Assembly: GCA_964496765.1 (NCBI GenBank) | Contig: CAZCAP010000003.1 | Location: forward strand, 36,854 to 68,853 | Origin: an uncultured archaeon | Lineage (GTDB): Archaea > Iainarchaeota > Iainarchaeia > Iainarchaeales > CSSED10-239 | Direction: 5' to 3' | DNA: 32,000 bases | Translations under genes and position numbers: made by a program | In this document: positions 4,895 through 19,991 of the stretch, piece after piece | How the letters are laid out: each line of letters opens with the position of its first letter | Position numbering within the stretch: position 1 is the stretch's first letter | Notes under the pieces: generated by a model | The model's database searches: none | What the model saw: the letters and a program-made list of their open reading frames with translations, nothing else | Told to the model about the DNA's origin: nothing

Positions 4895-5977
4895 ATGAGT
4901 AGAGTAAATAAAAAACAAGACGAAGAGTATGTAGAAACTTCTGAAGACATTAAAGAAGTAGAAGATACAGATACAAATGAAGATGATTTTTCTGAAAAAA
5001 AGAAAAAATTAAAGATAGATGATGATATTATTGATAAAATTAAACCAAAAGACATATCTGATCTTCCTGGAATCGGAGCTACTTCTGCAGAGAAACTAAG
5101 AGCAGCAGGATATGATACCTATGAAGCAATTGCTGTTGCCTCACCAATGGAACTTGTTGCTGTTGCAGGTCTAGGAGATGGAACTGCAATTAAAGCAATT
5201 AAGGCAGCTCGTGATTCTCTTGAAATGGGTTTCGAATCTGCTGAAAAGATATTAGAAAAAAGAAAAACAATCTCAAGAGTATCAACTGGTTCTGAAAACA
5301 TTGATGAACTTCTTGGTGGAGGAATTGAATCCCAATCAATCACAGAGGTTTATGGTAAGTTTGCTTCTGGTAAATCACAATGGTGTTTCCAACTATGTGT
5401 AATGGCTCAAATGCCTGTTGATAAGGGTGGGCTTGGTGGAAATGTATTGTATATAGATACAGAAAACTCATTTAGACCAGAAAGAGTACAGGACATTGCA
5501 AGATATAGAGGAATGGATCCTGAAGAGGTTGTTAAGAATGTATTTGTTGCAAGAGCATACAATAGTAATCACCAAATGCTTCTTGCTGAAAAAGCAGCTG
5601 AGCTTATTAAAGAAAAAAATGTTAAATTATTAATTGTTGATTCTTTGATGGGGCAGTTCAGGTCAGAGTTTACTGGAAGAGGAACGTTATCCGACAGGCA
5701 ACAGAAGATTAACACACACATGCGCCTTCTTCAGAAGTTATCTGAATTATATAATATTGTAATCTTTGTAACTAATCAGGTTATGTCAAGGCCAGATGTA
5801 TTATTCGGAGATCCAACTGATGCAGTTGGTGGTAATGTTGTAAAGCATGCTTCAAAAACAAGAATTTATTTAAGAAAGGGAACAGGAACAAAGAGAATTG
5901 CAAAGCTTGTTGATTCCCCAGGGCTCCCTGATGGAGAAACAGTATATAACATCACAGAAGATGGTGTACTAGATTAA
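4895..5977 (+). CDS. radA: RadA recombinase
   Basis: The HhH module is DLPGIGATSAEKLRAAGYDTYEAIAVASPMEL. Walker A is GKFASGKSQ and Walker B is KLLIVDSLM, followed by the RadA/Rad51 C-terminal core (VIFVTNQV..GGNVVKHASKTRIYLRKG). An AGGTGA Shine-Dalgarno motif lies 7 nt upstream of the ATG. Confidence 0.95.
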   Translation: MSRVNKKQDEEYVETSEDIKEVEDTDTNEDDFSEKKKKLKIDDDIIDKIKPKDISDLPGIGATSAEKLRAAGYDTYEAIAVASPMELVAVAGLGDGTAIKAIKAARDSLEMGFESAEKILEKRKTISRVSTGSENIDELLGGGIESQSITEVYGKFASGKSQWCFQLCVMAQMPVDKGGLGGNVLYIDTENSFRPERVQDIARYRGMDPEEVVKNVFVARAYNSNHQMLLAEKAAELIKEKNVKLLIVDSLMGQFRSEFTGRGTLSDRQQKINTHMRLLQKLSELYNIVIFVTNQVMSRPDVLFGDPTDAVGGNVVKHASKTRIYLRKGTGTKRIAKLVDSPGLPDGETVYNITEDGVLD

Positions 5978-7385: not shown

Positions 7386-7409
7386 TCTTCTTGAATTAGA
7401 ACCACTAAG

Positions 7410-7425
7410 ATATATTTAAATATAT
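7410..7425. promoter_or_regulatory. Perfect 16-nt palindromic TATA-like element
   Basis: ATATATTTAAATATAT reads the same on both strands. It sits about 25-30 nt upstream of the first stem-loop of the structured intergenic region. Confidence 0.3.
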
Positions 7426-7444
7426 GTTATGCCATAATATTTGC

Positions 7445-7624
7445 ACTAACCTCCCTGTCATTGTCGCGAACAAGGGTAGGTGTACTAACCTATTTTTATG
7501 ACGTGGATAATTTCATATTATTTATGGTTAGGGTAACAATTAAAATCAGCTTTGTTACCCCAACAACTTTGTATTACTCAAATATGATTAATATTGCCGA
7601 TATTTGTTAGTTGTGAGTAATACA
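7445..7624 (+). other. Cluster of three stem-loops; candidate small structured RNA(s), strand uncertain
   Basis: Hairpin A (7449-7481) is ACCT-CCC..GGG-t-AGGT, flanked by the direct repeat ACTAACCT (7445-7452 and 7484-7491) and then ATTTTT. Hairpin B (7531-7560) is a perfect 9-bp stem GGGTAACAA/TTGTTACCC. Hairpin C (7570-7624) has a perfect 11-bp stem TGTATTACTCA/TGAGTAATACA plus an inner 5-bp stem. Confidence 0.35.
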
Positions 7625-7654
7625 TAATAAATTAGAGTTTTTTATAGGGCAAAA

Positions 7655-7692
7655 CCAGGAGCTTTTTCACTTTAGGGTAGAAGCTCCTCTGG
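7655..7692 (-). terminator. Stem-loop downstream of the hydrogenase-like gene
   Basis: CCAGGAGC (7655-7662) pairs with GCTCCTCTGG (7683-7692) with a 2-nt bulge. It lies 22 nt past the stop at 7715. On the minus strand it is followed by TTTT. Confidence 0.4.
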
Positions 7693-7714
7693 AGCTAGTA
7701 ATTTTCAAAATAAG

Positions 7715-8596
7715 TTAACTTTTTTTTCGTTTTAGATCTAGTCTTTTGCTATATTTGTATTCCCCTTTGTGAATACCCATTTTTGTTTTCTTTTGATTAT
7801 CTCTATATTTTATTACTCTATCTTCTCTGTATTGTTGTAAATCATTGGAAATAACTCCTGGTCCACCTATGCACCCACCCTTGCAAAAAAGAATGTCTAT
7901 GAACTTGATTTTTTTGTTTTTTTCCATTTCTTTTACTGCCCATGCAATGTTTTTTGGACCATCTACAATTAACACTTCATCAGGAGATAAGATATTTCTC
8001 ACATGCATTGTTTCAGCAACTGCTCCAGATAATGGGTAAATTTTTGTATAGTCATTATACACTTTATCAAAATCTATATCTTTTGTTTTAATATTTGATT
8101 TTTTAAATAATTTGTTTTTTTTAAAATAGTTTATAATTTCAACAAGTTCTGAAAAGGTAATTGCAAAATCTATATCTTTTTTGTTGTTGATTGCTTCTTG
8201 TTTTTTTGCTAAACAAGGGCCAACAAAGATTCTTTTTTGGTTTGGAAGCTCTTTTTTTAAATATCTGCCCATTATAACCATTGGTGATGCAATCTCAATA
8301 AGTTTGTTTTTGTGATGTGGATATTTGTTCTCAATTACTGTTATAATTGTTGGGCAGTTCGAACAAATAAATTGTTTTTTATCTTTTTTTTTAATGCTTT
8401 CCTTAATTATCTCGTGATATTTTCTATTAATAAGCTTTGCTGCAAAGGTTAGTTCTACAATCTTATCAAAACCAATCCCCTTGAGGTCAAAAAGAATGTC
8501 AGGATATTTAAAATCAACAGGAAAAGAAGGAGCAAGAAGGCAAACACACTTCTCAGTTTGTAATGTGTTAACAATATCTAATAAATCTTTATTCAT
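7715..8596 (-). CDS. Stand-alone [FeFe]-hydrogenase H-cluster-domain-like (HydA/Nar1-like) protein
   Basis: 293 aa. Collinear matches to the Fe-only hydrogenase large-subunit core are: LLAPSFPVDF; LKGIGFDKIVELTFAAK (compare LGFDkVFDt.fgAD); FICSNCP (compare TSCCP); ASPMV (compare KSPQQ); VGPCLAKKQEA (compare MPCxxKxxE); SGAVAETMH (compare GGVMEAALR); ILFCKGGCIGGPG (compare MACPGGCxxGGGQP). It has no N-terminal ferredoxin-like domain. Confidence 0.7.
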   Translation of the reverse strand: MNKDLLDIVNTLQTEKCVCLLAPSFPVDFKYPDILFDLKGIGFDKIVELTFAAKLINRKYHEIIKESIKKKDKKQFICSNCPTIITVIENKYPHHKNKLIEIASPMVIMGRYLKKELPNQKRIFVGPCLAKKQEAINNKKDIDFAITFSELVEIINYFKKNKLFKKSNIKTKDIDFDKVYNDYTKIYPLSGAVAETMHVRNILSPDEVLIVDGPKNIAWAVKEMEKNKKIKFIDILFCKGGCIGGPGVISNDLQQYREDRVIKYRDNQKKTKMGIHKGEYKYSKRLDLKRKKS

Positions 8597-8603
8597 AGTT
8601 TAT

Positions 8604-9569
8604 CTATTTTATAAATTTATTATATTTACTCTTCTTATTTTTTAATAACACAATTCTTGATTGTGGCACATCATCAATAATTTTAAAAAGCTTGGATTCT
8701 TTTTCAAGAAGATGTGCATAGTTAGATACATCAGTAAAACTTGGCATATTATCTATTTTTAAATTATTTCTTGATTCTCCAAGAAACATGTATGATTTTA
8801 CTTCAAGAAAATCTGCATTACTTTTCTCAAATAGTTTAATGTATTTTTTAACATATACAGGATTATCATTAAGTCCTTTAATTAAAGTAAACCTAATTAC
8901 TCTTCTTGTTTTTAATTTTGAAACAATGGTCATGGTTTTAAGTAATCTTTCCCAGGCATTCTTTATTTTTGGTCTATTTATTTTTTTGTGGGTTTCTTTG
9001 TCTGGTGCAGAAACAGAAATATATAATTGAGTAGGAAGTGCTTTTTCCTTTTCTAGTTTTTTAAACATCTTTGGTTCTTGCCCATTTGATACAAGGAATA
9101 TACTTTTTATTTCTTTTTTGGTTTTAAGATATTTAATCATTTCTGGTAAATGAGGATAGATTGTAGGTTCCCCAGCAAGAGATATTGCAACATGACTTGG
9201 AATAACTGATTCCTCAAGTAATCTTTTGTTGGAACCATGATATCCAAAAAATCCAGAAAGCAGTTTTTCACGTTCTTTAAATAAACCATCAATTATTTCT
9301 TTTGGGTCATCAAGTTTTTCTTTTATTTCTGGATGTTTCATATTTTCTGCTGGTCTCCAACAAAAAACACAATTTTGATGACACCAGAGTACTGCTGGGG
9401 TTATTTGAGCACATCTATGACAATCAACGTTATAGAATCTTTGTTTATAGCATACTCCTTCGTTTCTTAGTGCTTTTTTGTTCCATTCACATATTTCTAC
9501 AGCAGAATGAGATCCAAAAATACCATAGTGTTTGTGTTTTAAATCTTTAAAAACTTCCTCTTTATTCAT
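8604..9569 (-). CDS. taw1: Radical-SAM tRNA 4-demethylwyosine synthase (Taw1/TYW1)
   Basis: GSHSAVEICEWNKKALRNEGVCYKQRFYNVDCHRCAQITPAVLWCHQNCVFCWRP matches the TYW1 auxiliary-cluster Cys residues plus the CxxxCxxC radical-SAM motif. I prefer the ATG at 9569 (MNKEEVF). The track's 29 extra N-terminal residues translate AT-rich promoter-like DNA. Confidence 0.85.
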   Translation of the reverse strand: MNKEEVFKDLKHKHYGIFGSHSAVEICEWNKKALRNEGVCYKQRFYNVDCHRCAQITPAVLWCHQNCVFCWRPAENMKHPEIKEKLDDPKEIIDGLFKEREKLLSGFFGYHGSNKRLLEESVIPSHVAISLAGEPTIYPHLPEMIKYLKTKKEIKSIFLVSNGQEPKMFKKLEKEKALPTQLYISVSAPDKETHKKINRPKIKNAWERLLKTMTIVSKLKTRRVIRFTLIKGLNDNPVYVKKYIKLFEKSNADFLEVKSYMFLGESRNNLKIDNMPSFTDVSNYAHLLEKESKLFKIIDDVPQSRIVLLKNKKSKYNKFIK

Positions 9570-9704
9570 ATTTGTTTTCCTAGAGTAAATTAAAATAGTA
9601 TTACTATATATAATATGATAGAAATTATTTAAAATAGGGTATGTTTTTAAATACATTTGTGTATTTATATATTATTTTATGGTGATAAATAAAGTGGTGA
9701 TATT

Positions 9705-11225
9705 TTGAAAAAGAAAATTACAAAAACAAAGATTAAAAGACCTATTGCAAAAGTGGCTAGGAAGAGTTCAAAAAAAGTAATCCCACACAAATCTATCAAA
9801 AAGCATGTTTTAGTAAAGCCTGTTGAACATATTCCATTGAAACCAAAACTTGAAAAATTGCACGTTAAGCATAGAGGACTTACAAAAACGCAAAAATGGT
9901 TATTTTCTGGGGTAGTGTTTCTTGTGATCATTATTATACTTCTTGCGTTTCTAATACCACCAACTACTTTTGTAAATCCAGTAATTGATGAAAATATAAC
10001 CACTGATTCAATAGACACTAATTTTTCACCAATAGATTCCAATCAGGTAATGAGTATTGAGCAATTTCAAAATATTTCTTTAGATCTTCAACAGAGGGTT
10101 TATGGTGAAATAAAATCAGAGCAACAAAAGATTATTGCATCACACTATCAGGAGCTTGGCCTTAATTCAGAACAAATAAATTCTTGTGTTTATTTAAATG
10201 ATTTCACAAGATCTGATGTTAATGTTGAAAATTCAAAAATATTATTGAAGATCCAAAAGGACACATATATTGCTCCAATCCTTGGAATATCAGAAGCACC
10301 AGGTATGTTTGTTAATGGTTATTATTTATCAGGAGAACCAACCTATGCTCAACTTAAGGAAAAAATTGATTTTGCATTAGCTGATAGCCCTATTTCTTGG
10401 AACTATGATAATAATAATTATGTATCTAATACAATAGCAAGTCCAACAATCACTATTATCTACAATGAAGACCATGAATTAATTAAAAATAAAACACTAG
10501 ATTTTATTAATTACCTAAAAATATCTGAATCATTAACACCAGAGCTTAGATCTTTCTTTACTGATTTGTTTAAAGAAATTCCAGTTAATTATTATTCATA
10601 CACATCAACAAAGGGAATTAATCTAATTGAGGCACTTGATATTCAGGTAATTCCTGTTATTTATATTGAAGGAGATATAAGTCAACTTCAGGTTATTTCG
10701 AATGTAAATAATAATGAATTGTTTTCATATCTTTTCCTAAAAACAGATGCTGGTGGATATATATTAAACCAGAAAATTGCCTATGATATACTTGTAACAT
10801 CAAAAATTGATTCAGTACATCAGATTATAGATTACTCATTAATTGCAGATAAGGATGATTATATAATTGGAAATAAAGATGCAAAGGTTACACTTTATTT
10901 ATTCTCCAATTATGATTGTCAGGCCTGTGCTGATTTTGAAAACACAAATTTAAATAAATTAATGACTGACTATGTTAACACAAATAAAATAAAATTTGTT
11001 AAAAAGGACTTTATTGTTCGTGAGATGGCTTCTCTCTATCCAACTATATTTGTGAGATGTGCACAGGAGCAAAATAAATATCTTGAAACAAATAAATTGT
11101 TATTTGATTTGAGTGCTGAACTTGGAACTGATGGATTTGTTAAAACTGTTATGGATAGACACCAATCAGAGATAGATTATCTTACAACTGAGTATCAAAA
11201 GATAATTGATGCCCAAAAGAAATGA
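9705..11225 (+). CDS. Membrane-anchored extracytoplasmic protein with several thioredoxin-fold (DsbA-like) modules and one CxxC site
   Basis: 506 aa with a TTG start 4 nt after GGTGA. It has a basic N-terminus and a TM helix (WLFSGVVFLVIIIILLAFLI). The C-terminal module KVTLYLFSNYDCQACADFE carries the DsbA-type CxxC. Earlier modules show LGISEAPGMFVNGYYLSGEPTYAQLKEKI and IQVIPVIYIEGD (cis-Pro strand motifs) without catalytic Cys. Confidence 0.55.
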   Translation: MKKKITKTKIKRPIAKVARKSSKKVIPHKSIKKHVLVKPVEHIPLKPKLEKLHVKHRGLTKTQKWLFSGVVFLVIIIILLAFLIPPTTFVNPVIDENITTDSIDTNFSPIDSNQVMSIEQFQNISLDLQQRVYGEIKSEQQKIIASHYQELGLNSEQINSCVYLNDFTRSDVNVENSKILLKIQKDTYIAPILGISEAPGMFVNGYYLSGEPTYAQLKEKIDFALADSPISWNYDNNNYVSNTIASPTITIIYNEDHELIKNKTLDFINYLKISESLTPELRSFFTDLFKEIPVNYYSYTSTKGINLIEALDIQVIPVIYIEGDISQLQVISNVNNNELFSYLFLKTDAGGYILNQKIAYDILVTSKIDSVHQIIDYSLIADKDDYIIGNKDAKVTLYLFSNYDCQACADFENTNLNKLMTDYVNTNKIKFVKKDFIVREMASLYPTIFVRCAQEQNKYLETNKLLFDLSAELGTDGFVKTVMDRHQSEIDYLTTEYQKIIDAQKK

Positions 11226-13129: not shown

Positions 13130-13152
13130 TTTTGGTGTGATTTATTTTGAAA

Positions 13153-13779
13153 ATGAAAACTGAATTTACTGATTTTATATTTGAGGAAATCATAGATAAA
13201 GAACCAATTGACAATCTAGTTAATACATTAACTTCTTTATCAATTAAAACTGTTTATGTGATGAGAGAAATTAAAAATAAATCTGATTTAGCTTTAGAAT
13301 ACATGCTTCCTCCATCTACCACTATTAATTTCAAAAAAGCATACTTATTCTATGATATTTCTTTAATTCCATTTTTCAAAACTAGGAATGAGGATGGAAA
13401 TAAACCATTAATACTTGCCTATGGTGGAGATGTTAAAAAAAACTCAATAATTCTTGAAAAAGAAAGAGGGATAAATATATTACTTAATCCACTTTCAGAA
13501 AAATTATCCTTTGATACTGCATCAACTAATCTTGCAAAAGTAAATAAAATAATTATTGGGTTTAATCTTAATTTGTTTAGAGATAAACCCTATTCTTCAA
13601 TTAAACAAGCAAGATTTATAATTTCTTTACTTATAAAAAATAAGATAGATATGAGATTTTGTTCCTGTGCTAGAAGATTGATTGATCTGGTGGATCCACA
13701 AATCACTGAATCCCTATTATTAAATTTCAAATTAGAAAAGGAAACAAGTAAAAGATTCCTTATGGGTGGGGGATATTAG
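13153..13779 (+). CDS. rnp3: RNase P protein component 3 (Rpp30 family)
   Basis: About 208 aa. The C-terminal pattern IDMRFCSCARRLIDLVDPQITESLLLNF resembles the Rpp30 SSGA..R.P.D motif. It sits immediately upstream of Pop5 in the conserved superoperon. ATG at 13153; the track gives TTG at 13147. Confidence 0.65.
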   Translation: MKTEFTDFIFEEIIDKEPIDNLVNTLTSLSIKTVYVMREIKNKSDLALEYMLPPSTTINFKKAYLFYDISLIPFFKTRNEDGNKPLILAYGGDVKKNSIILEKERGINILLNPLSEKLSFDTASTNLAKVNKIIIGFNLNLFRDKPYSSIKQARFIISLLIKNKIDMRFCSCARRLIDLVDPQITESLLLNFKLEKETSKRFLMGGGY

Positions 13780-13784
13780 ATAAT

Positions 13785-14126
13785 ATGAACTCAAAGAAAA
13801 AGAAGTTGAATGTAATTCCTCCAACATTGAGAGATAAAAAAAGGTATGTTTCATTTAATGTTTCAAGAATAGGACCTGAGATTCAAAATGAAAATGATGT
13901 TTTCAGAATAATTATTAAGAACTTTGAAAAAGTTCATGGATTATTTAAATCAGTTTCTGCAAATATAACAATAATCTCATTTAATAAACAAGAAAAAGAA
14001 ATACTTCTAAGAGTTAATAAGGATAATCTTGATGATTTATTAACTAGCATGTTCTTCCTAAAGGACCAGTTCTCGTTAATTAGCATAAAAACCATTAGCC
14101 AAACAATAAAAAAGAGCAAAAAATAA
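13785..14126 (+). CDS. rnp2: RNase P protein component 2 (Pop5 family)
   Basis: The N-terminal IPPTLRDKKRYVSFNV matches the archaeal Pop5 signature LPPTLRxKKRYIxFxV. Size is 113 aa. Confidence 0.8.
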   Translation: MNSKKKKLNVIPPTLRDKKRYVSFNVSRIGPEIQNENDVFRIIIKNFEKVHGLFKSVSANITIISFNKQEKEILLRVNKDNLDDLLTSMFFLKDQFSLISIKTISQTIKKSKK

Positions 14127-14308
14127 TCATTTCTAAGAATTAATTCAATTCTTCTCTTTGTTACACAAAAATCTAATTTAGGTAAGCTTTTTAATGATTA
14201 TCTCCCATATTATATATTATATAAAGACTATTTTGGTTATTTTAACTAATTTAATTAATTTAAGGAAAAAAGGTGAATAATTTGTTTTCAGTTTCTCAAA
14301 ATAATAAC

Positions 14309-15007
14309 ATGGCACAGGCATATGATAGGTCGATCACAGTTTTTAGTCCTGAAGGACACTTGTATCAGGTTGACTATGCGTCAAAGATTATTGAAAAGGG
14401 GTCTCCAGTAGTAGCAATTTCATATAAGGATGGAATTATTATTGTTGCAGACAAGAAAATATTTTCTTCTCTTATAATTCCTGAATCTGTTGAAAAAGTA
14501 TTTAAGATAGATCAACATGTTTGGGTTGCATGTTCAGGATTAATTGGAGATGGAAGAAGGCTTGTTGATTTTGCAAGACAAATTGCACAGGAGAACAAGA
14601 CCTACTATGATGATCCCATTGAGATTGAAACACTTGTTAAAAAAGTTGCTTCCATTGTTCAATATTATACACAATATGGAGGAGCAAGACCGTTTGGAGT
14701 TTCGATAATTACTGCGGGAATTGATACTCTTGGCAAGCATATCTATGAAACAGAACCAAGTGGAGCAACAACTGCATATAAGGCTGTTGCAATTGGTCAA
14801 AACAAACAAAAATTAATGGCACATCTTGAAAAAAATTATAAAGTAAACATGTCATTTGATGATGCACTTAAGCTTGCAATTAAAACTCTTACTTTAAATT
14901 TAGAGCCAAAGCAAAAGCTTGAAGCAAATAATATAGAAGTAATAAATATTACAGAAGATGAAAGAAAAGCAATAGTTTCACAGGATAAATATTCTAAGTT
15001 GATTTAA
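14309..15007 (+). CDS. psmA: Proteasome alpha subunit
   Basis: MAQAYDRSITVFSPEGHLYQVDYA is the alpha-subunit N-terminal signature. The start is uncertain: ATG 14309, TTG 14282 (6 nt after AAGGTG) or GTG 14273 as in the track. Confidence 0.9.
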   Translation: MAQAYDRSITVFSPEGHLYQVDYASKIIEKGSPVVAISYKDGIIIVADKKIFSSLIIPESVEKVFKIDQHVWVACSGLIGDGRRLVDFARQIAQENKTYYDDPIEIETLVKKVASIVQYYTQYGGARPFGVSIITAGIDTLGKHIYETEPSGATTAYKAVAIGQNKQKLMAHLEKNYKVNMSFDDALKLAIKTLTLNLEPKQKLEANNIEVINITEDERKAIVSQDKYSKLI

Positions 15008-15030
15008 ACATAAATATGAGATGATGTATT

Positions 15031-15519
15031 ATGCCAGGACCAAAACCAGCAACTAGACCAAAATATAGATTAAAAGAAAATTCAAATTTTTTATTAACAA
15101 AGAATTTAGTGAAATCAAGTTCAAAAGTTATTAAAAAAATGAAGGATGTACAAATGAAAACTCCAGAGGGAAGAATTCGTTTGAACAAAACTATTGAGCA
15201 ATCATCACATGCAAAAGCAACTTTGAGAGATTTTATTTTAAGAGATTATCTAAAAGAAAGACTTAAAAAAGCAAATAAATTATATGTGGAAAAAGTATTT
15301 CATGAAATAAATCAAATTCATTTAATTAAAGAAAAATTTATAACTAAAAATAAAGCTAAAGCATATAATGATGTTATAAAAAAAACATTTAAGGATTTAA
15401 GAGGATTCGAGAGTGGTTCAGGGAAAAGTGGTAAATTAATTAGAAAGGAACCAATTGCGGATAATAAAATTTGTGAGTATCTTAGAGAAAGAAGAATAAT
15501 ATTAGAACATACAAATTAG
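15031..15519 (+). CDS. Hypothetical highly basic protein (orphan) inserted in the exosome superoperon
   Basis: 162-aa ORF, MPGPKPATRPKYRLKEN.., K/R-rich and apparently helical. It is co-directional with its neighbours and separated from them by short gaps (23 nt and 29 nt). I recognise no family motif. Confidence 0.5.
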   Translation: MPGPKPATRPKYRLKENSNFLLTKNLVKSSSKVIKKMKDVQMKTPEGRIRLNKTIEQSSHAKATLRDFILRDYLKERLKKANKLYVEKVFHEINQIHLIKEKFITKNKAKAYNDVIKKTFKDLRGFESGSGKSGKLIRKEPIADNKICEYLRERRIILEHTN

Positions 15520-15548
15520 TGAACTAAAAATTTTAATGGGTGATGATT

Positions 15549-16274
15549 ATGTTTTATAAGGGTGAAAAAAATAATGGAAATCTAGAAAACACAGTTGTTG
15601 CTAAATTTAAGAAAGATGGTCACAATTTTGAAATTTTAGTTTATCCTTTTATTGCATGGGATTATAGGCACAATCATCCTGGAGTCACCATTGAACAAGT
15701 TATTGCCTATGATGAAGTATATTCAGATGTTCAAAAAGCAAACACTGCTTCAAAGGAACTATTAATGGAGTGTTTTAATACAGCTGATATTAATAAAATC
15801 GCAGAAAAAATAATTAGAGATGGAGAGGTTCAATTAACAACCGCTCAAAAACAACAATTAACAGAAAAAAAAGAAAAAGAAATAATTGATTACATTGCAA
15901 AGAATGCACATGATCCAAAAGCAAAAACTCCAATCCCTCCACAGAGATTAATTAATGCTTTTGCTGAATTAAAAATAAAAATAAATCTTAATACTCCAAA
16001 AGAAAAAGAAATACAGGAAATACTTGATAAGTTAAAAAGGATTATGCCAATTTCTGTTGAAAAAATAATTGTTGAGGTTGAAGTTCCTGCTCTATATACA
16101 GGAAAGGCATCTGCTGTTATTTTCAAATATGAGGTTGCTGAACAAACCTGGTTAGCATCTGGAGATTTGTTTTGTAAAATAAAAATACCAGCAGGAACTA
16201 AGCAACAGTTGGTGTCTGATCTAAATAACGTAACCCATGGTAACATCGTTATTAGGGTTGAAGGTGCTCAGTAA
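15549..16274 (+). CDS. sdo1: SBDS-family ribosome maturation protein
   Basis: VVAKFKKDGHNFEILVYP matches the FYSH-domain N-terminus, and the length of ~240 aa fits. The ATG at 15549 lies 5 nt after GGTGA. The position before rrp4 is conserved. Confidence 0.8.
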   Translation: MFYKGEKNNGNLENTVVAKFKKDGHNFEILVYPFIAWDYRHNHPGVTIEQVIAYDEVYSDVQKANTASKELLMECFNTADINKIAEKIIRDGEVQLTTAQKQQLTEKKEKEIIDYIAKNAHDPKAKTPIPPQRLINAFAELKIKINLNTPKEKEIQEILDKLKRIMPISVEKIIVEVEVPALYTGKASAVIFKYEVAEQTWLASGDLFCKIKIPAGTKQQLVSDLNNVTHGNIVIRVEGAQ

Positions 16275-16305
16275 ATATTTAAAAAAAATAAGAAGGTTAT
16301 AATTT

Positions 16306-16920
16306 ATGGACAAAAAAATAGTAGTACCAGGAGATTTACTTACTCTTGAAAAAAAAAAGTTAGGACAAAATACCTTTCTTGAGAATGATAAGGTTTATAG
16401 TTCAGTTATTGGATTAGTTACTGAAAATACAGAATACATTTCAGTCATTGCATTAAATGGGCCATATCTACCTGTTGTTGGAGATGCAATACTTGGAATT
16501 GTTAAATCTGAAATAGTTAATGGATATTTCTTGGATTATCATTCTCCTGGAGAAATATATTTGCCAAAATCCACGCTATCAAAGGAACTAAAGATTGGTT
16601 CAGTAATTTTTGCAAAAATTAGAAATATAACTGAATCAGATTCAATTGAACTTGAAAACGTAAATGTACTCCCACAGGGATATATTTTTAATACATCTCC
16701 AGTTAAAGTTCCAAGACTAATAGGTAAGAATGATTCTATGTTAAACTTGTTTAAGCAGTATACAGAATCTAGTATTGTTATTGGCAAGAATGGATGGGTT
16801 TGGTTTGTTTCGAAAAAACCACAACTACTTGAAAAAGCAATGAGTTTAGTTGTTAATAATTCACAAAAATCAAATCTTACAAATACAATAAAGGAATATC
16901 TAGAAAAAAACACAAAATAA
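16306..16920 (+). CDS. rrp4: Exosome RNA-binding subunit Rrp4 (S1 plus KH)
   Basis: N-terminal VVPGDLL, an S1-like middle region and a KH motif VPRLIGKNDSMLNLF..VIGKNGWVWF. It sits upstream of rrp41 and rrp42. Confidence 0.8.
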   Translation: MDKKIVVPGDLLTLEKKKLGQNTFLENDKVYSSVIGLVTENTEYISVIALNGPYLPVVGDAILGIVKSEIVNGYFLDYHSPGEIYLPKSTLSKELKIGSVIFAKIRNITESDSIELENVNVLPQGYIFNTSPVKVPRLIGKNDSMLNLFKQYTESSIVIGKNGWVWFVSKKPQLLEKAMSLVVNNSQKSNLTNTIKEYLEKNTK

Positions 16921-16964
16921 AATTATTATAATAAAACTAATAAAATAAAAAAAAGTGATAAAAT

Positions 16965-17669
16965 ATGAATGAAAGAATTGATGGTAGAAAGAATGATGAA
17001 CTTCGCCCAATTAAAATAAAGCTTGGTGTTGTTAAATCAGCAGATGGTTCATGCTATCTTGAATGGGGGAAAAATATTGTTGTTGCAACAGTACATGGTC
17101 CAAGACCAATTTTTCCAAAGCACCTAGCAGATGCTGAAAGATCAGTTATTGATTACAGATATAGAATGGCACCTTTTTCTGTAACTGATAGAAAATCACC
17201 AGTCCCTGCAAAAAGAGATAAGGAAATATCTCTAGTTTCTGGTAATGCTTTAGAATCAGTAATCCTAATTGAAAAATTTCCAAATACAGTAATTAATATT
17301 GATGCAATGATCTTGTCGGCTGATGCTGGTACTAGAGTTGCTGCACTTACTGCTGCAACCCTAGCCTGTGCTGATGCAGGACTTCCAATGAGAGGACTTG
17401 TTTCTGCAGTGTCTGCTGGTAGAGCAAATGGAAATCATATATTAGATTTAACAAAGGAGGAGGAAGATGCAGAAGATGCTGTAGATACTGCTGTTGCTGT
17501 TCTAATGCCTCAAAAAGAAATTGTTCTTCTTCAAATGGATGGATTTGTTGAAAAGGAAGAATGGAAAAAAATAATAAATATGGGAATTGTTGGCTCAGAG
17601 AAGATTTATGATCTTCAAAAGAAAGCACTTCTTGAAAAATACCCTATAGATGGTGATATTAATGAGTGA
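16965..17669 (+). CDS. rrp41: Exosome RNase PH subunit Rrp41
   Basis: RIDGRKNDELRPIKIKLGVVKSADGSCYLEWGKNIVVATVHGPR is the RNase PH domain 1 signature. Size is 234 aa. Confidence 0.9.
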   Translation: MNERIDGRKNDELRPIKIKLGVVKSADGSCYLEWGKNIVVATVHGPRPIFPKHLADAERSVIDYRYRMAPFSVTDRKSPVPAKRDKEISLVSGNALESVILIEKFPNTVINIDAMILSADAGTRVAALTAATLACADAGLPMRGLVSAVSAGRANGNHILDLTKEEEDAEDAVDTAVAVLMPQKEIVLLQMDGFVEKEEWKKIINMGIVGSEKIYDLQKKALLEKYPIDGDINE

Positions 17670-18456
17670 AACTTTAAAAATTGTAAATTCAGAAAACATA
17701 CTTTCAAAGATGAAGGAAGGACAAAGACTTGATGGAAGAGGGCTTAATGACTATAGAGATATTGAAATAAAAGTTAATAATATTAAGTCTGCTGATGGTT
17801 CATCATGGGTAAGGATTGGGAACACAGAGGTTGTTTGTGGAATTAAGTTTATAATTGGAACTCCCTATCCAGATTCTCCTGATGAGGGTAACATGAGTTT
17901 TAATCTTGAGCTAACTGGACTTTCATCACCAGAGTTTAGTACAGGGCCTCCACAGATTGATGCACTAGAGTATGGAAGAGTTGCTGATAGAGCAATAAGA
18001 CATGCTAATGCTATTGATTTTAAAGAACTTGCGATTATTCCTGGAGAAAAAGTATTTACTATGTTTATTGATTGCTATGCAATTAATGCTGATGGAAACC
18101 TAATTGATGCAACAGAAATTGCTGCTCTTGCTGCAATAATGAACGCACACATCCCTAAGCTTGATGAAAAGAATGTAATAATCTATGGTGAGAAGGATAG
18201 AAAAATTAATTTGAAAACATTCCCTTTGTCTTTTACTTTTGAGAAGATTGGAGATAAAATTGTTCTTGATGCAACTGAAATTGAAGAGTTTACATCATCA
18301 ACTAGATTTTCACTAGGGATATACAAAAATACAATCCTTTCTTGCCATAAAAGCAAAGGTGGGGTATTTACATCTGATGAAATTAATTATATGATTGATG
18401 TTGCTACATCAAAATATAATGAACTTGAGAAAAAAATAAAAGATGCAATAAAATAA
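17662..18456 (+). CDS. rrp42: Exosome RNase PH-like subunit Rrp42
   Basis: GQRLDGRGLNDYRDIEIKVNNIKSADGSSWVRIGNTEVVCGIK. I prefer the ATG at 17662, which is 5 nt after GGTGA and overlaps the rrp41 stop. The track starts at 17650. Confidence 0.9.
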   Translation: MSETLKIVNSENILSKMKEGQRLDGRGLNDYRDIEIKVNNIKSADGSSWVRIGNTEVVCGIKFIIGTPYPDSPDEGNMSFNLELTGLSSPEFSTGPPQIDALEYGRVADRAIRHANAIDFKELAIIPGEKVFTMFIDCYAINADGNLIDATEIAALAAIMNAHIPKLDEKNVIIYGEKDRKINLKTFPLSFTFEKIGDKIVLDATEIEEFTSSTRFSLGIYKNTILSCHKSKGGVFTSDEINYMIDVATSKYNELEKKIKDAIK

Positions 18457-18489: not shown

Positions 18490-18711
18490 ATGACCACAAA
18501 AAAAGTTAAGGTTACTGGTAAGCATGGAGTAAGAGCAGGAGTAGGAATTAGAAAAAAATTTCTTCTTGCTACTACAACTGATAAATCAAAATATGTTTGT
18601 CCAAAGTGTGGATTCTTAGGAAAGATATCAAGAACAGCAAAGGGAATCTTTAAATGTTCTAAATGTAAAACAATGATATCTGGTGGAGCCTACAAGCTTA
18701 AAACCAATTAA
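18490..18711 (+). CDS. rpl37ae: Ribosomal protein L37Ae (eL43)
   Basis: TKKVKVTGKHGVRAGVGIRKK followed by the zinc ribbon CPKCG..CSKCKTMISGGAY. ATG at 18490, 7 nt after AGTGA. Confidence 0.9.
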   Translation: MTTKKVKVTGKHGVRAGVGIRKKFLLATTTDKSKYVCPKCGFLGKISRTAKGIFKCSKCKTMISGGAYKLKTN

Positions 18712-18750
18712 AAGATAATAAATTAATTAAAAAGTAAAGGTGAAAAATAA

Positions 18751-18879
18751 ATGTATACCTGTGCAAGATGTAAAGAAAATTATGAAGAACTTCCGGAAAA
18801 TAATAAGTGTAGATCCTGTGGGTCTAGGATATTTTATAAGAAGAGAGAACCAATTTTAAAGAAAGTAAAAGCCTACTAG
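18751..18879 (+). CDS. rpoP: RNA polymerase subunit P (Rpo12/RpoP)
   Basis: Below the ORF-track size cutoff. My translation is MYTCARCKENYEELPENNKCRSCGSRIFYKKREPILKKVKAY. This is a CxxC..CxxC zinc ribbon followed by the basic K.R tail typical of RpoP. AGGTGA precedes the ATG, and the position after L37Ae is conserved. Confidence 0.8.
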   Translation: MYTCARCKENYEELPENNKCRSCGSRIFYKKREPILKKVKAY

Positions 18880-18889
18880 GTAGTTAGAA

Positions 18890-19387
18890 ATGTATGTAAC
18901 AGTATCCAGAAAAGCAGATAATTCTGTTAAAAAATTCTCTAAATATTTATCTCTTTTCATAGATGATATAAAATACATTCCACGAGGGAAGACTGCACTT
19001 AGTAAGATTTTCGAGTCTGCTATATTTCTTGGACACAATTACTTCCTAATCTCCAGAAAACAAGAAAAAGATCAGATTTCACTTTTAGTTTATAAAATAA
19101 ATTACAAGGAAAAAGCATTTTCCCCAGATAAAGAAATTATTTTTAGAATTCTGGATCTGAATTCAATTCTATCCAAAAAAGAATTAGATAAATTAAAGAA
19201 AGAAAATGATTTCACAGATGGAAATAAATTGTTTTATTTTCTAACTAGTAAAAAGAAAGGAGACTATGGTGTTTTCGTTGATGATAAAAAAGAAAGAAGA
19301 TATTCATTTAAGATGAATGCAAAAGATCTTGGTTTCTTTTTGATTCACATTGAAACAAAAAAATTCAAGGAGATGAAACTTGCTTGA
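18890..19387 (+). CDS. Brix/Imp4-domain ribosome biogenesis protein
   Basis: MYVTVSRKADNSVKKFSKYLSLFIDDIKYIPRGKTALSKI matches the archaeal Brix pattern (iTTSRkps.r.r.f.k.L......y..RGk..l). Size is 165 aa and the superoperon position is conserved. Confidence 0.75.
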   Translation: MYVTVSRKADNSVKKFSKYLSLFIDDIKYIPRGKTALSKIFESAIFLGHNYFLISRKQEKDQISLLVYKINYKEKAFSPDKEIIFRILDLNSILSKKELDKLKKENDFTDGNKLFYFLTSKKKGDYGVFVDDKKERRYSFKMNAKDLGFFLIHIETKKFKEMKLA

Positions 19388-19629
19388 TTGGTCAAATCAT
19401 ATCTAATGTAATTCTAATTAAAACAAATGATCCCAATAATCTAAAGAAGCTTCTTGATCTTGAATTTGAAAGGAAGAAATATAATAGATCAGAATCAAAA
19501 ATCACAATCACAAAAGAAGGACTAAAAATAGAAATAAAAGCAAAAGATATTATTGCATTCAAAGCAACTGTTAATAATTATATTAATATTTTAGAACTAA
19601 TAAAGAAAACTTATGAGGTGGATTTATGA
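19384..19629 (+). CDS. pcc1: KEOPS complex subunit Pcc1
   Basis: 81 aa. RSESKITITKEGLKIEIKAKDIIAFKATVNNYINILELI parallels the archaeal Pcc1 core (RSE..f....k.i.l.I.A.D..AlR.tvNsYlrwi). The TTG start overlaps the Brix stop. Confidence 0.75.
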   Translation: MIGQIISNVILIKTNDPNNLKKLLDLEFERKKYNRSESKITITKEGLKIEIKAKDIIAFKATVNNYINILELIKKTYEVDL

Positions 19630-19991
19630 ATAAAGATAAAAATGTAAAAGATAATTCAGGGGCAGTAAATGCCTATAGACAACAATTAATGTACATAACC
19701 AATCAAAAACAACAGATGCAGTTTCAATCAAATATTTTAGATTCCACAATAAAGGAACTTGAGACCACTAAAGAAAAAAAGGTTTACAAGGGAACTGGTA
19801 ACATCTTTATCTCAAAGAATGTGGAAGATGTTTTGAAAGAAACAAAAGAAACAAAAGAAACAATTGGATTAAGAATTAAAAATATTGAAAAACAAGAAAC
19901 TGATCTTGTAAAAAAATTAAATGAGATTACAAGAAAGGATGATAAAGATAATACAAAAGAAATTGATGATAATGTGGAAGGAATTGCTTAA
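19626..19991 (+). CDS. pfdB: Prefoldin beta subunit
   Basis: Coiled-coil / beta-hairpin / coiled-coil pattern QQLMYITNQKQQMQFQ..IKELE..KKVYKGTGNIFISK..IKNIEKQETDLVKKLNEI. ATGA overlap with the pcc1 stop. Confidence 0.85.
   Translation: MNKDKNVKDNSGAVNAYRQQLMYITNQKQQMQFQSNILDSTIKELETTKEKKVYKGTGNIFISKNVEDVLKETKETKETIGLRIKNIEKQETDLVKKLNEITRKDDKDNTKEIDDNVEGIA

Follow-up and report, generated by a model that had tools for sequence, protein, structure and literature searches.

The window analysed here is a 32,000-nucleotide stretch of DNA from an uncultured Iainarchaeota-type DPANN archaeon. It encodes the archaeal markers histone, RadA, exosome, proteasome, ABCE1 and aS21, and an Rfam scan of it returned three tRNAs only. 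On the minus strand, a gene for the radical-SAM enzyme Taw1 is followed by a gene for a 293-residue protein with the catalytic domain of [FeFe] hydrogenases (Table 1). The taw1 frame, read from the sequence, runs from an ATG at 9569-9567 to a TAG at 8606-8604, and the co-directional arrangement with a 7-nt spacer described in the initial annotation is exact in its coordinates. Gene callers start the taw1 ORF at 9656 (350 aa), and the extra 29 residues find no support among homologues. The 7-nt gap is nothing special in this genome, since 11 of the 19 co-directional pairs of neighbouring ORFs in the window are at most 25 nt apart or overlap.

Table 1. Genes and other features at and around the taw1-hydrogenase locus (positions within the window)
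Feature	Position	Strand	Basis
taw1 / TYW1, archaeal 4-demethylwyosine synthase, 321 aa	8604..9569	-	TIGR03972, Pfam and PDB matches
Spacer between taw1 stop codon and hydrogenase ATG, 7 nt	8597..8603	-	Read from sequence
Asn-type group E "ultraminimal" [FeFe] hydrogenase, H-domain only, 293 aa	7715..8596	-	PF02906, CpI alignment, identity to Forterrea enzyme, AlphaFold2/Foldseek, residue census
AT-rich divergent intergenic region between taw1 and thioredoxin-like gene; presumed promoter(s) of the taw1-hydrogenase transcript	9570..9704	.	Position only, inferred
3' flank of hydrogenase gene, T-tract then hairpins; likely terminator of the taw1-hydrogenase transcript	7652..7714	-	Fold, terminator-like match, conservation
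Thioredoxin-fold (DsbA-like) protein, 506 aa, divergent from taw1	9705..11225	+	Pfam Thioredoxin_4; NF041057, E 1.7e-13
ABCE1	30218-31999	-	Encoded in window

The presumed promoter region showed no surplus of sites in a scan with a sigma-70 model, a type of model that carries no information for archaea. In the flank behind the hydrogenase gene, the hairpins are AGCTCC-AGA-GGAGCT and GGAGCTT...AAGCTCC. The RNA fold of 7386-7714 has a z-score of -3.95, and a terminator-like match at 7682-7696 was called on the plus strand, its palindromic stem being able to form in either transcript. In one relative, L088, this flank is also the only part of the sequence after the hydrogenase gene that is conserved (91% over 43 nt).

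The identification of taw1 in the initial annotation holds. The product scores 360.8 bits against TIGR03972 rSAM_TYW1 (cut-off 317.95), carries the Pfam domains Radical_SAM (PF04055) and Wyosine_form (PF08608), and matches in the PDB the TYW1 of P. horikoshii (2yx0, E 1.3e-82) as well as 2z2u and 6djt (both ~7e-65). C27, C40, K42 and C53, together with C63, C67 and C70, do not vary among 14 members of the clade. From a residue mapping to the M. jannaschii enzyme, we take C63/C67/C70 to be the radical-SAM CxxxCxxC motif, and C27/C40/C53 with K42 to be the auxiliary-cluster triad and the catalytic lysine. Judged by its sequence, the taw1 product is a radical-SAM enzyme with two predicted [4Fe-4S] sites and no flavodoxin domain. 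Eukaryotic TYW1 has such a domain and archaeal Taw1 does not (PMC8941971).

An H-domain-only member of the group E family

The only Pfam domain matched in the 293-residue protein is Fe_hyd_lg_C (PF02906; E 4e-42, residues 17-246). Its best NCBIfam model is TIGR04105 (B1) at 134.9 bits, below the cut-off of 450, and the group A model TIGR02512 gives 79.5 bits against a cut-off of 405.95. Identity to the clostridial enzyme CpI is about 20%. In the HMMER alignment from which the residue equivalences were taken, FICSNCP pairs with FTSCCP of CpI (N80 = C299, C81 = C300), VGPCLAKKQEA with VMPCTSKKFEA (C128 = C355, K131 = K358, E134 = E361), ILFCKGGC with VMACHGGC (C238 = C499, C242 = C503) and IASPMV with AKSPQQ. 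[quoted passage not shown] In the second sphere, C299, M353 and M497 of CpI are replaced by N80, G126 and L236; the sensory enzymes of group C are altered at precisely these three positions (PMC10055695). The proton pathway of group A is not preserved: the equivalents of C299/E279/S319/E282/R286 are N80, K59, I100, E62 and S67. The whole protein has seven cysteines, four of them the H-cluster ligands, lacks an F-cluster domain, and ends in ...LDLKRKKS.

The AlphaFold2 model of the protein (pLDDT 85.9, pTM 0.87) finds only [FeFe] hydrogenases among its top Foldseek matches in the PDB (query-normalised TM-score 0.72-0.77, E down to 6.5e-17), and its PDB sequence matches at E <= 0.1 are true hydrogenases throughout. 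In a census of 77 archaeal and bacterial relatives, the four cluster cysteines are invariant, as are A230, P231, S232, P301, S323, P324, P354, K358 and E361 (CpI numbering), which points to selection on the [2Fe] pocket. The C299 equivalent is N in 52 relatives, V in 14, P in 8, A in 2 and T in 1, and is never Cys, Asp or Ser. C17 and C19 near the N-terminus are not conserved (Cys in 5/77 and 33/77 relatives). The Pfam lists of all called genes in the window, which include several ORFs with no Pfam match, hold no further radical-SAM domain and no HydF-type GTPase domain, so that HydE, HydF and HydG are not evident there. The initial annotation is borne out in the H-domain match, the four retained ligand cysteines, the Lys and Glu of PCxxKxxE, the missing N-terminal F-cluster domain, the lack of hydE/F/G genes among the Pfam matches in the window, and four substitutions (TSCCP to CSNCP, MPC to GPC, KSPQQ to ASPMV and MAC to LFC), all of which are correct against CpI.

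The nearest relatives of the protein belong to Iainarchaeota or Diapherotrites. It shares 54% identity over 291 residues (E 8e-116) with the enzyme of Ca. Forterrea multitransposorum (P0016, locus L007), and both fall in a clade with 100/100 bootstrap support in a neighbour-joining tree, which we call Asn-type after the residue at the C299 position. The next-nearest relatives are proteins of 560-1035 aa with ~30% identity, in which the match begins near residue 70. With its single H-domain, its ligand and [2Fe] residues, its clustering with the Forterrea enzyme and its DPANN host, the 293-aa ORF is, by sequence, an additional member of group E, a known family that was published and biochemically validated in 2024. 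The suggestion of an "ultraminimal" DPANN hydrogenase in the initial annotation was therefore right, and this headline is not new. The Forterrea enzyme, the group E representative, binds the H-cluster and turns over H2 after maturation with [2Fe]adt, with 4.2 Fe per protein and FTIR bands of the H-cluster, and it works in both directions while favouring H+ reduction, in contrast to T. maritima HydS (PMC11216029). Group E is reported to be sister to group C.

Radical-SAM neighbours in archaea and CPR bacteria

The pairing with taw1 is not unique to this genome. taw1 lies directly upstream on the same strand in 18/18 archaeal GTDB species representatives with an Asn-type enzyme, Forterrea included, and it holds this place in 46 of the 48 loci of the clade that were anchored on taw1. 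Spacer length has a median of 7 nt and does not exceed 20 nt in 37/51 loci; gaps are often 0 nt, or the genes overlap by 4 nt. ORF calling and the choice between genetic codes 11 and 25 were crude in this comparison, three archaeal loci being assigned code 25, and the taw1 of locus L034, overlooked by the ORF caller, is intact by tblastn. The gene for arginyl-tRNA synthetase (ArgRS) and the thioredoxin-like gene accompany taw1 with a conservation close to that of the hydrogenase gene; the family of the thioredoxin-like gene (cluster c4) occupies position -2 in most clade loci. This gene is a member of an ArgRS-Trx-Taw1-Hyd synteny block and has no known functional tie to the pair. In two sub-lineages, an ORF (258 aa and 192 aa) is inserted between taw1 and the hydrogenase gene. 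These ORFs have no Pfam or NCBIfam match, and they are dissimilar to the small ORFs beside the bacterial genes described below, so a small accessory gene common to both hosts was discarded. Because ArgRS and the thioredoxin-like gene are conserved too, because ORFs are inserted and because the 7-nt gap is ordinary, the adjacency is no proof of selection on the pair itself.

The two genes also occur apart. In the L113-L115 sub-lineage taw1 remains but the hydrogenase gene is gone, most archaea have Taw1 without this hydrogenase, and Nanoarchaeota have the hydrogenase without Taw1. Neither at the 14 loci with room that encode a Taw1 of less than 53% identity nor at four other DPANN taw1 genes did we find an adjoining hydrogenase or a recurrent redox partner. 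A Rosetta-stone fusion was sought and discarded: the best 120 Taw1 relatives all have the PF04055 + PF08608 architecture and 321-400 aa, and the best 150 hydrogenase representatives include no fusion either.

The Asn-type clade also includes UGA-recoded (code-25) CPR bacteria of the Absconditabacteria and Gracilibacteria, so that group E is not restricted to archaea. In these code-25 loci, the Asn-type gene mostly lies between two radical-SAM genes. One encodes a MiaB/RimO methylthiotransferase (TIGR00089, 303.6 bits against a cut-off of 251; Radical_SAM + UPF0004) and stands, depending on the genome, upstream or downstream; the second is HemW-like (Radical_SAM + HemN_C). The gaps are looser than in archaea, mostly 27-190 nt. 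The non-Asn subtypes, from Nanoarchaeota and code-11 bacteria, have no radical-SAM neighbour. In the literature searched, which for the Cell 2024 paper means the main text, we found no link between Taw1/TYW1 and a hydrogenase in archaea. The role given to group E there is fermentative, and neither taw1 as a neighbour nor members from CPR bacteria are mentioned (PMC11216029); the taw1 placement, the CPR membership and the radical-SAM neighbours go beyond that main text.

Proposed function and its alternatives

We think the protein is probably an Asn-type group E hydrogenase reduced to its H-domain, which disposes of electrons as H2 and is encoded by the second gene of a clade-specific taw1 operon. 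In the proposed mechanism, C81, C128, C238 and C242 would bind the [4Fe-4S] cubane, and C242, by homology with C503 of CpI, would bridge it to the di-iron [2Fe] subsite, held by K131, E134, A22-P23-S24 and S104-P105. F-clusters being absent, a small carrier of low potential would trade electrons with the exposed cubane without an intermediate. From what is published on the Forterrea enzyme, this carrier would be a ferredoxin reduced by pyruvate:ferredoxin oxidoreductase (PFOR); PFOR and ferredoxin are encoded by the Forterrea genome (PMC5905446). Since the canonical proton relay is absent, protons must take another route, presumably as in the sensory-type enzymes of the sister group C. The gene would be co-transcribed with taw1. 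The putative operon is itself conserved but is part of a bigger block that is conserved as well, so we interpret the pairing as co-expression within a compact genome, which may also suit two Fe-S enzymes that are sensitive to oxygen. Several points weigh against this account. HydE, HydF and HydG are missing from the closed Forterrea genome and not evident in our window, activity is known solely after artificial maturation of the Forterrea homologue, and the C299 equivalent is never Cys, Asp or Ser. It would be odd for a fermentative enzyme of supposedly high flux to be tightly coupled to a tRNA-modifying enzyme of low abundance. In addition, a reading in which taw1 is a neutral neighbour does not predict that the bacterial Asn-type genes also adjoin radical-SAM genes.

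This last point bears on a different role, in which the Asn-type protein would be a dedicated donor of low-potential electrons to the cluster of a radical-SAM enzyme, Taw1 in Iainarchaeota and, in Absconditabacteria and Gracilibacteria, an enzyme of RimO or HemW type. H2 would supply the electrons, or they would just pass through the exposed [4Fe-4S] cluster. The role would be like that of the fused flavodoxin domain of eukaryotic TYW1, which archaeal Taw1 lacks (PMC8941971). The near-constant and often gapless position behind taw1, the flanking radical-SAM genes in the CPR loci with the RimO-type gene on either side, and the want of such neighbours in the non-Asn subtypes all fit this role. 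We nevertheless regard it as unlikely. The pattern comes from two independent host lineages only, with a chance probability of ~0.01-0.03 by a rough estimate that allows for post-hoc choice of category; ArgRS and the thioredoxin-like gene accompany taw1 almost equally; unrelated ORFs separate the pair in two sub-lineages; L113-L115 have lost the hydrogenase gene alone; no fusion was found among the best 120 Taw1 relatives and the best 150 hydrogenase representatives; taw1 has no hydrogenase neighbour in other DPANN and other archaea; and the CPR gaps are loose. In its general form, that Asn-type group E enzymes (CxNCP, GPC, LxC) are not primarily fermentative and supply electrons, as dedicated donors, to radical-SAM enzymes with modification targets in the translation machinery, the proposal is one we hold to be rather improbable. 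Here H2 or the exposed cubane would replace flavodoxin or ferredoxin systems that reduced genomes may lack. If true, it would explain why the gene moved between domains and landed by a radical-SAM gene in both hosts, and it would close a long-standing gap by showing what physiologically reduces archaeal Taw1 in this clade.

The initial annotation had also considered a Nar1/NARF-like Fe-S protein. Spelled out, such a protein would carry only Fe-S clusters in vivo, for want of HydEFG, and act as carrier or insertion factor for clients including Taw1 and ABCE1, its H2 activity in vitro being an artefact of the synthetic cofactor. Both of these clients are encoded in the window, no maturases were seen, as stated above, and the four cubane cysteines are kept as in site 1 of Nar1, whose cavity can hold other clusters (PMC12621388). 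In Forterrea-like genomes, SufU-like and SufB/D genes lie convergent and downstream of the hydrogenase gene; this adjacency is confined to one sub-lineage and is on the opposite strand. Nar1 has an N-terminal ferredoxin-like four-Cys site (site 2) and a C-terminal Trp used for docking to the CIA targeting complex (PMC12621388), and both are absent from the seven-cysteine protein ending in KRKKS. The residues that hydrogen-bond the CN ligands or shape the [2Fe] pocket, invariant in the 77 relatives, are hard to explain without the cofactor, and all sequence and listed fold matches in the PDB are true hydrogenases. On domain architecture and these invariant residues we reject Nar1 identity, and consider a Nar1-like function very unlikely.

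A stripped-down relative of groups C and D that reports H2 or redox state and carries no metabolic flux would agree with the sister relation to group C, with the changes at C299 (to X), M353 (to G or S) and M497 (to X) and the loss of the proton pathway in common with that group, and with the long multidomain proteins as next-nearest relatives. A PAS or other output domain is absent, no regulator is conserved beside the gene, and the Forterrea enzyme favours H+ reduction where HydS does not, so that a sensor seems highly improbable. Finally, the neighbouring radical-SAM enzymes might form an alternative pathway to the H-cluster in hosts without HydE and HydG, themselves radical-SAM enzymes, and the Asn-type gene does have radical-SAM neighbours in each of the two host lineages. 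The archaeal neighbour, though, is an orthodox Taw1, above its equivalog cut-off, with invariant catalytic residues and 2yx0 as a close match; the neighbours differ between the two lineages; and no HydF-like scaffold is encoded nearby. We give this substitute maturation hardly any credence.

Two facts of context matter beyond this locus. The archaeal Asn-type enzyme, including the model enzyme from Forterrea, is always the second gene behind taw1, and the enzymes most closely related to it come from UGA-recoded CPR bacteria, where the gene again adjoins radical-SAM genes. Together they make two questions testable: what reduces archaeal Taw1 in vivo, and whether the maturase-less "ultraminimal" enzymes truly act as hydrogenases in the cell. 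If the link to taw1 is one of synteny only, the finding is an ordinary one.

Comparison with known systems

The protein resembles the group A enzymes CpI and C. reinhardtii HydA1 in fold, in its four cysteines, in K358 and E361 and in the APS motif, and, like HydA1, it has no F-domain. It differs from group A at C299, M353 and M497 and in its low score on the group A model, and it is ~160 residues shorter than HydA1, with condensed loops. T. maritima HydS, of group C, similarly keeps the H-cluster ligands and CN-binding residues and lacks the canonical proton pathway (PMC10055695), and C299/M353/M497 are replaced by A, G and S there and by N, G and L here. HydS additionally carries F-clusters at its N-terminus, a further cluster at the C-terminus and a PAS domain, all absent here, and identity to it is ~28-30%. 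With Nar1/CIAO3 the protein shares a hydrogenase-like fold, the four site-1 cysteines, a host without evident HydEFG and, judged by the eukaryotic system, clients that include Fe-S enzymes of translation; here, however, conservation of the [2Fe]-pocket residues is complete, the host is prokaryotic, and no CIA partners were seen in the window. Eukaryotic TYW1 also ties a radical-SAM wyosine synthase to a low-potential redox module, by fusion there and by a putative operon here; the present link is one of gene adjacency and the module is an H-domain, not an FMN domain (PMC8941971). The closest parallel is the Forterrea enzyme, of 286 aa against 293 aa here. Both proteins consist of the H-domain only and have the CxNCP, GPC and LFCxGGC motifs, and both loci have the gene order ArgRS-Trx-Taw1-Hyd in a setting where HydEFG are not evident. 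The species differ, and SufU/SufBD genes lie downstream in Forterrea where an AAA_14/DUF4143 gene and RadA follow the hydrogenase gene here.

The gene pair and its products

The 293-aa protein is a further member of a known family, described only recently (2024). Fe_hyd_lg_C is its sole Pfam domain (residues 17-246, E 4e-42), and the database search returned 942 relatives, nearly all of 285-300 aa with the same single domain. Among them is P0016, the protein of Ca. Forterrea multitransposorum (Fm; CP045477.1, locus L007), which represents group E in published biochemical work. Group E comprises 'ultraminimal' [FeFe] hydrogenases of DPANN archaea, with a mean length of 286 aa (PMC11216029). We assign the window protein to group E because it is 54% identical to Fm across 291 residues, and this identity bears out the initial annotation's first reading, an ultraminimal DPANN [FeFe] hydrogenase. 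Fm contains one [4Fe-4S] cluster and takes up synthetic [2Fe]adt, giving H-cluster FTIR states; on an electrode it is bidirectional with a bias to proton reduction, and group E activity was seen solely after synthetic maturation (PMC11216029). The AlphaFold2 model of the window protein, with 29 relatives in the alignment (pLDDT 85.9, pTM 0.87), has only [FeFe] hydrogenases as its top PDB fold matches (query-normalised TM-score 0.72-0.77). Of 1.84 billion cluster representatives searched, just 31, mostly of 250-310 aa, reached E <= 1e-30; the next tier comprised 560-1035-aa proteins with ~30% identity, in which the match begins near residue 70. One cluster-search match, P0264, is a 4122-aa predicted protein made up mostly of tandem complete group-A-like hydrogenase H-domains (seven copies, the first six at 444-aa spacing; motifs TSCCA, MPCTVKKTEA and MMCEGGC), and resembles a polyprotein of eukaryotic style.

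The gene upstream encodes a genuine archaeal Taw1. Its product scores 360.8 bits against TIGR03972 (cut-off 317.95), carries Radical_SAM and Wyosine_form domains with no flavodoxin domain in the Pfam search, and is matched by the crystallised P. horikoshii TYW1 (E 1.3e-82). Across the clade, the cysteines of the radical-SAM and auxiliary clusters do not vary, nor does the adjacent lysine. Gene callers give a 350-aa protein (ORF 8604-9656, start 9656); alignment with 13 clade homologues backs the 321-aa form that starts at 9569. As the initial annotation had read, the two genes are co-directional and 7 nt apart, Taw1 and ABCE1 (30218-31999 in the Pfam list) are both encoded in the window, and no HydE, HydF or HydG is evident there: the Pfam lists of the called genes, in which several ORFs have no match, contain no other radical-SAM or HydF-like GTPase domain. 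Such a gap is ordinary for the genome: in the window, 11 of 19 co-directional neighbouring ORF pairs overlap or lie within 25 nt of each other. Elsewhere in the window, ArgRS and tRNA-Arg(TCT) sit just upstream of the exosome/proteasome superoperon. Just beyond window position 1, about 9 kb downstream of the hydrogenase gene, a row at L001:18818-20882 encodes an ArsR-type HTH protein, a class-V aminotransferase/cysteine-desulfurase-like protein and a 366-aa radical-SAM protein (Fer4_12).

Coordinates of the gene pair, of ORFs inserted between its members in other loci, and of the neighbouring superoperon
Feature	Position	Strand	Basis or remark
taw1	ATG at 9569 to TAG 8606-8604	minus	sequence reading
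Hydrogenase ORF, 293 aa	ATG at 8596 to stop 7717-7715	minus	sequence reading
taw1-hydrogenase spacer, 7 nt	8597-8603	minus	sequence reading
Inserted ORF, 258 aa	L058:3153-3922; L086:1019-1791; also L088		begins 1-4 nt past taw1
Inserted ORF, 192 aa	L098, L099, L136 (about 4958-5543)		4-nt overlap with taw1 stop
Archaeal exosome/proteasome superoperon	13147-18456 and about 18490-19991		Rpp14, proteasome alpha subunit, SBDS, Rrp4, Rrp41, Rrp42, L37ae, Pcc1-like, prefoldin

Recurrence of the pair and its wider synteny

The adjacency, for which the initial annotation knew no precedent, recurs in related DPANN genomes and is limited to one clade. Among GTDB species representatives, taw1 lies directly upstream on the same strand in 18/18 archaeal loci of the Asn subtype (Asn at the C299 position of the C. 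pasteurianum enzyme, CpI), Forterrea included, and in none of the Nanoarchaeota, Woesearchaeota, Pacearchaeota or bacterial hydrogenase loci. For the converse count, a metagenome scan with the clade alignment was combined with the GTDB set, keeping loci with Taw1 identity of at least 53% and at least 900 nt downstream; the hydrogenase gene follows taw1 in 46 of these 48 loci, which overlap in part between the two sets and are not all independent. The two exceptions (L114, L115) retain ArgRS, Taw1 and RadA and have lost the Trx-like and hydrogenase genes, a pattern of the sub-lineage L113-L115, whose Taw1 is 61% identical. No hydrogenase gene lies near the more distant Taw1 genes (0/14 loci) or near four other DPANN Taw1 genes of 54-56% identity. 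From taw1 stop to hydrogenase start the median distance is 7 nt, with at most 20 nt in 37 of 51 loci and 288 nt in one locus.

This recurrence means less than it first seems because synteny extends over the entire block ArgRS(-) Trx(-) Taw1(+) Hyd(+). The divergent Trx-like gene and ArgRS upstream of taw1 are conserved nearly as well as the hydrogenase gene, and only the downstream side varies (SufU/SufBD, RadA, small toxin-like ORFs and others). In two sub-lineages, one of them the window's closest relatives (L058, L086-L088; Taw1 84-92% identical), the pair is interrupted by unrelated ORFs of 258 aa or 192 aa, with no Pfam or NCBIfam match. Two loci, L015 and L109, keep the pair although the upstream block is broken. 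Gene order thus establishes a conserved, predicted taw1-hydrogenase operon, but this conservation does not demonstrate that the pairing as such is selected. In Forterrea-like genomes (L005-L008 and L010, positions +1 to +3; L110, L112, L116), the hydrogenase gene is followed closely by a convergent SufU/NifU-like scaffold gene and SufD/SufB, 3 nt apart or overlapping, an arrangement absent from the window.

Bacterial members of the Asn-type clade

The Asn subtype is also found in CPR bacteria, at 34 loci mostly labelled SR1, Absconditabacterales, Gracilibacteria or 'Peribacteria' (within L013-L057, plus L082 and L083; for example L025:6001-6876 and L052:6001-6828). These homologues are 45-53% identical to the archaeal group E enzyme. 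In their database translations, Trp stands where Gly is conserved, as in CEWWCIGGPW, which fits UGA read as Gly under code 25, the code that best accounts for the coding density of these loci. Together with the 18 archaeal Asn-type sequences they form one clade (100/100 NJ bootstrap), inside which neither domain is monophyletic (12/100, 3/100). Iainarchaeota and CPR sequences share a mean identity of 0.52, versus 0.40 with the other subtypes.

The usual CPR gene order is UvrB, RimO-type, Hyd, HemW-like and NusA; other loci show a second arrangement, with the RimO-type gene on the downstream side of the hydrogenase. The RimO-type product (Radical_SAM and UPF0004 domains) scores 303.6 bits against TIGR00089 (cut-off 251) and 337 bits against the RimO model, and is a MiaB/RimO radical-SAM methylthiotransferase. 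The HemW-like product is a radical-SAM protein with Radical_SAM and HemN_C domains. In both Asn-type host lineages, then, the hydrogenase lies beside two-cluster radical-SAM enzymes (Taw1, RimO-type). The non-Asn subtypes are flanked otherwise (Sm, RNase Z, Hyd, GlyRS in Nanoarchaeota; HPF, Hyd, an unnamed ORF, SecA in code-11 bacteria), with no adjoining radical-SAM gene found in the compared loci. Taking radical-SAM genes as ~1% of genes, a rough estimate, this adjacency, which represents at most two independent events, has a rough chance of 0.01-0.03 after post-hoc category choice; it is suggestive, not conclusive.

Active site, mechanism and alternatives

According to HMMER alignments to CpI, residues N80, C81, G126, C128, K131, E134, L236, C238 and C242 correspond to CpI C299, C300, M353, C355, K358, E361, M497, C499 and C503, and S104-P105-M106 to S323-P324-Q325, which confirms every H-domain motif and substitution in the initial annotation. 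Among 77 full-length relatives, taken from 80 genomes of species representatives (CpI numbering), the four Cys, A230, P231, S232, P301, S323, P324, P354, K358 and E361 are invariant. The C299 position is N in 52, V in 14, P in 8, A in 2 and T in 1, and Cys, Asp or Ser in none of the 77; M353 is replaced by G, S or A, and M497 by L, T, N or V. The signature C78-x-N80-C81-P82 with G126 and L236 holds in 49 of 52 Asn-subtype sequences. Because the [2Fe]-pocket residues are completely conserved, the alignments argue for a real H-cluster and not a degenerate, Nar1-like role. The initial annotation's second reading, a Nar1-like Fe-S carrier, is accordingly improbable: the N-terminal four-Cys site and C-terminal Trp that define Nar1 (PMC12621388) are both missing from the window protein. 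The three altered second-sphere positions, C299, M353 and M497, are those that set sensory group C apart from prototypical enzymes (PMC10055695). This likeness would suit a remnant of an H2 sensor, which we consider very improbable.

The radical-SAM neighbours in both Asn-type host lineages, and their absence beside non-Asn subtypes, would also suit a dedicated reductant for Taw1, RimO-type and HemW-type enzymes. With so few independent events, a block that is syntenic as a whole and no Taw1-Hyd fusion among the top matches of either family, this is rather unlikely. No HydEFG is known for group E host organisms; it seems extremely improbable that the radical-SAM neighbours stand in for these maturases.

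The published reading, a stand-alone H-domain hydrogenase, is the best supported. Such a protein would expose its [4Fe-4S]-[2Fe] cluster to a small carrier, whose electrons would be released as H2; PFOR and ferredoxin are encoded in the Forterrea genome (PMC5905446). Protons may reach the H-cluster via a non-canonical route, and the proton-pathway residues E279, E282, R286 and S319 are unconserved among the 77 relatives. The hydrogenase gene would be expressed from a putative taw1 promoter region (9570-9704), and a T-tract and hairpin directly 3' of the gene probably terminate its transcript. This hairpin, beside the stop codon, is the sole part of the 329-nt downstream spacer kept in a relative (L088). 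The spacer (7386-7714) lies between convergent genes, is unusually long for this compact genome, folds much better than shuffled sequences (z -3.95, hairpins of 11-13 bp) and has no Rfam match.

The operon and the CPR radical-SAM context justify a specific, cheap biochemical test. The conserved taw1-hydrogenase operon, the bacterial clade members and their radical-SAM neighbours add modest new context to group E, which the Cell 2024 paper describes in its main text as archaeal, with CPR members unmentioned there (PMC11216029).
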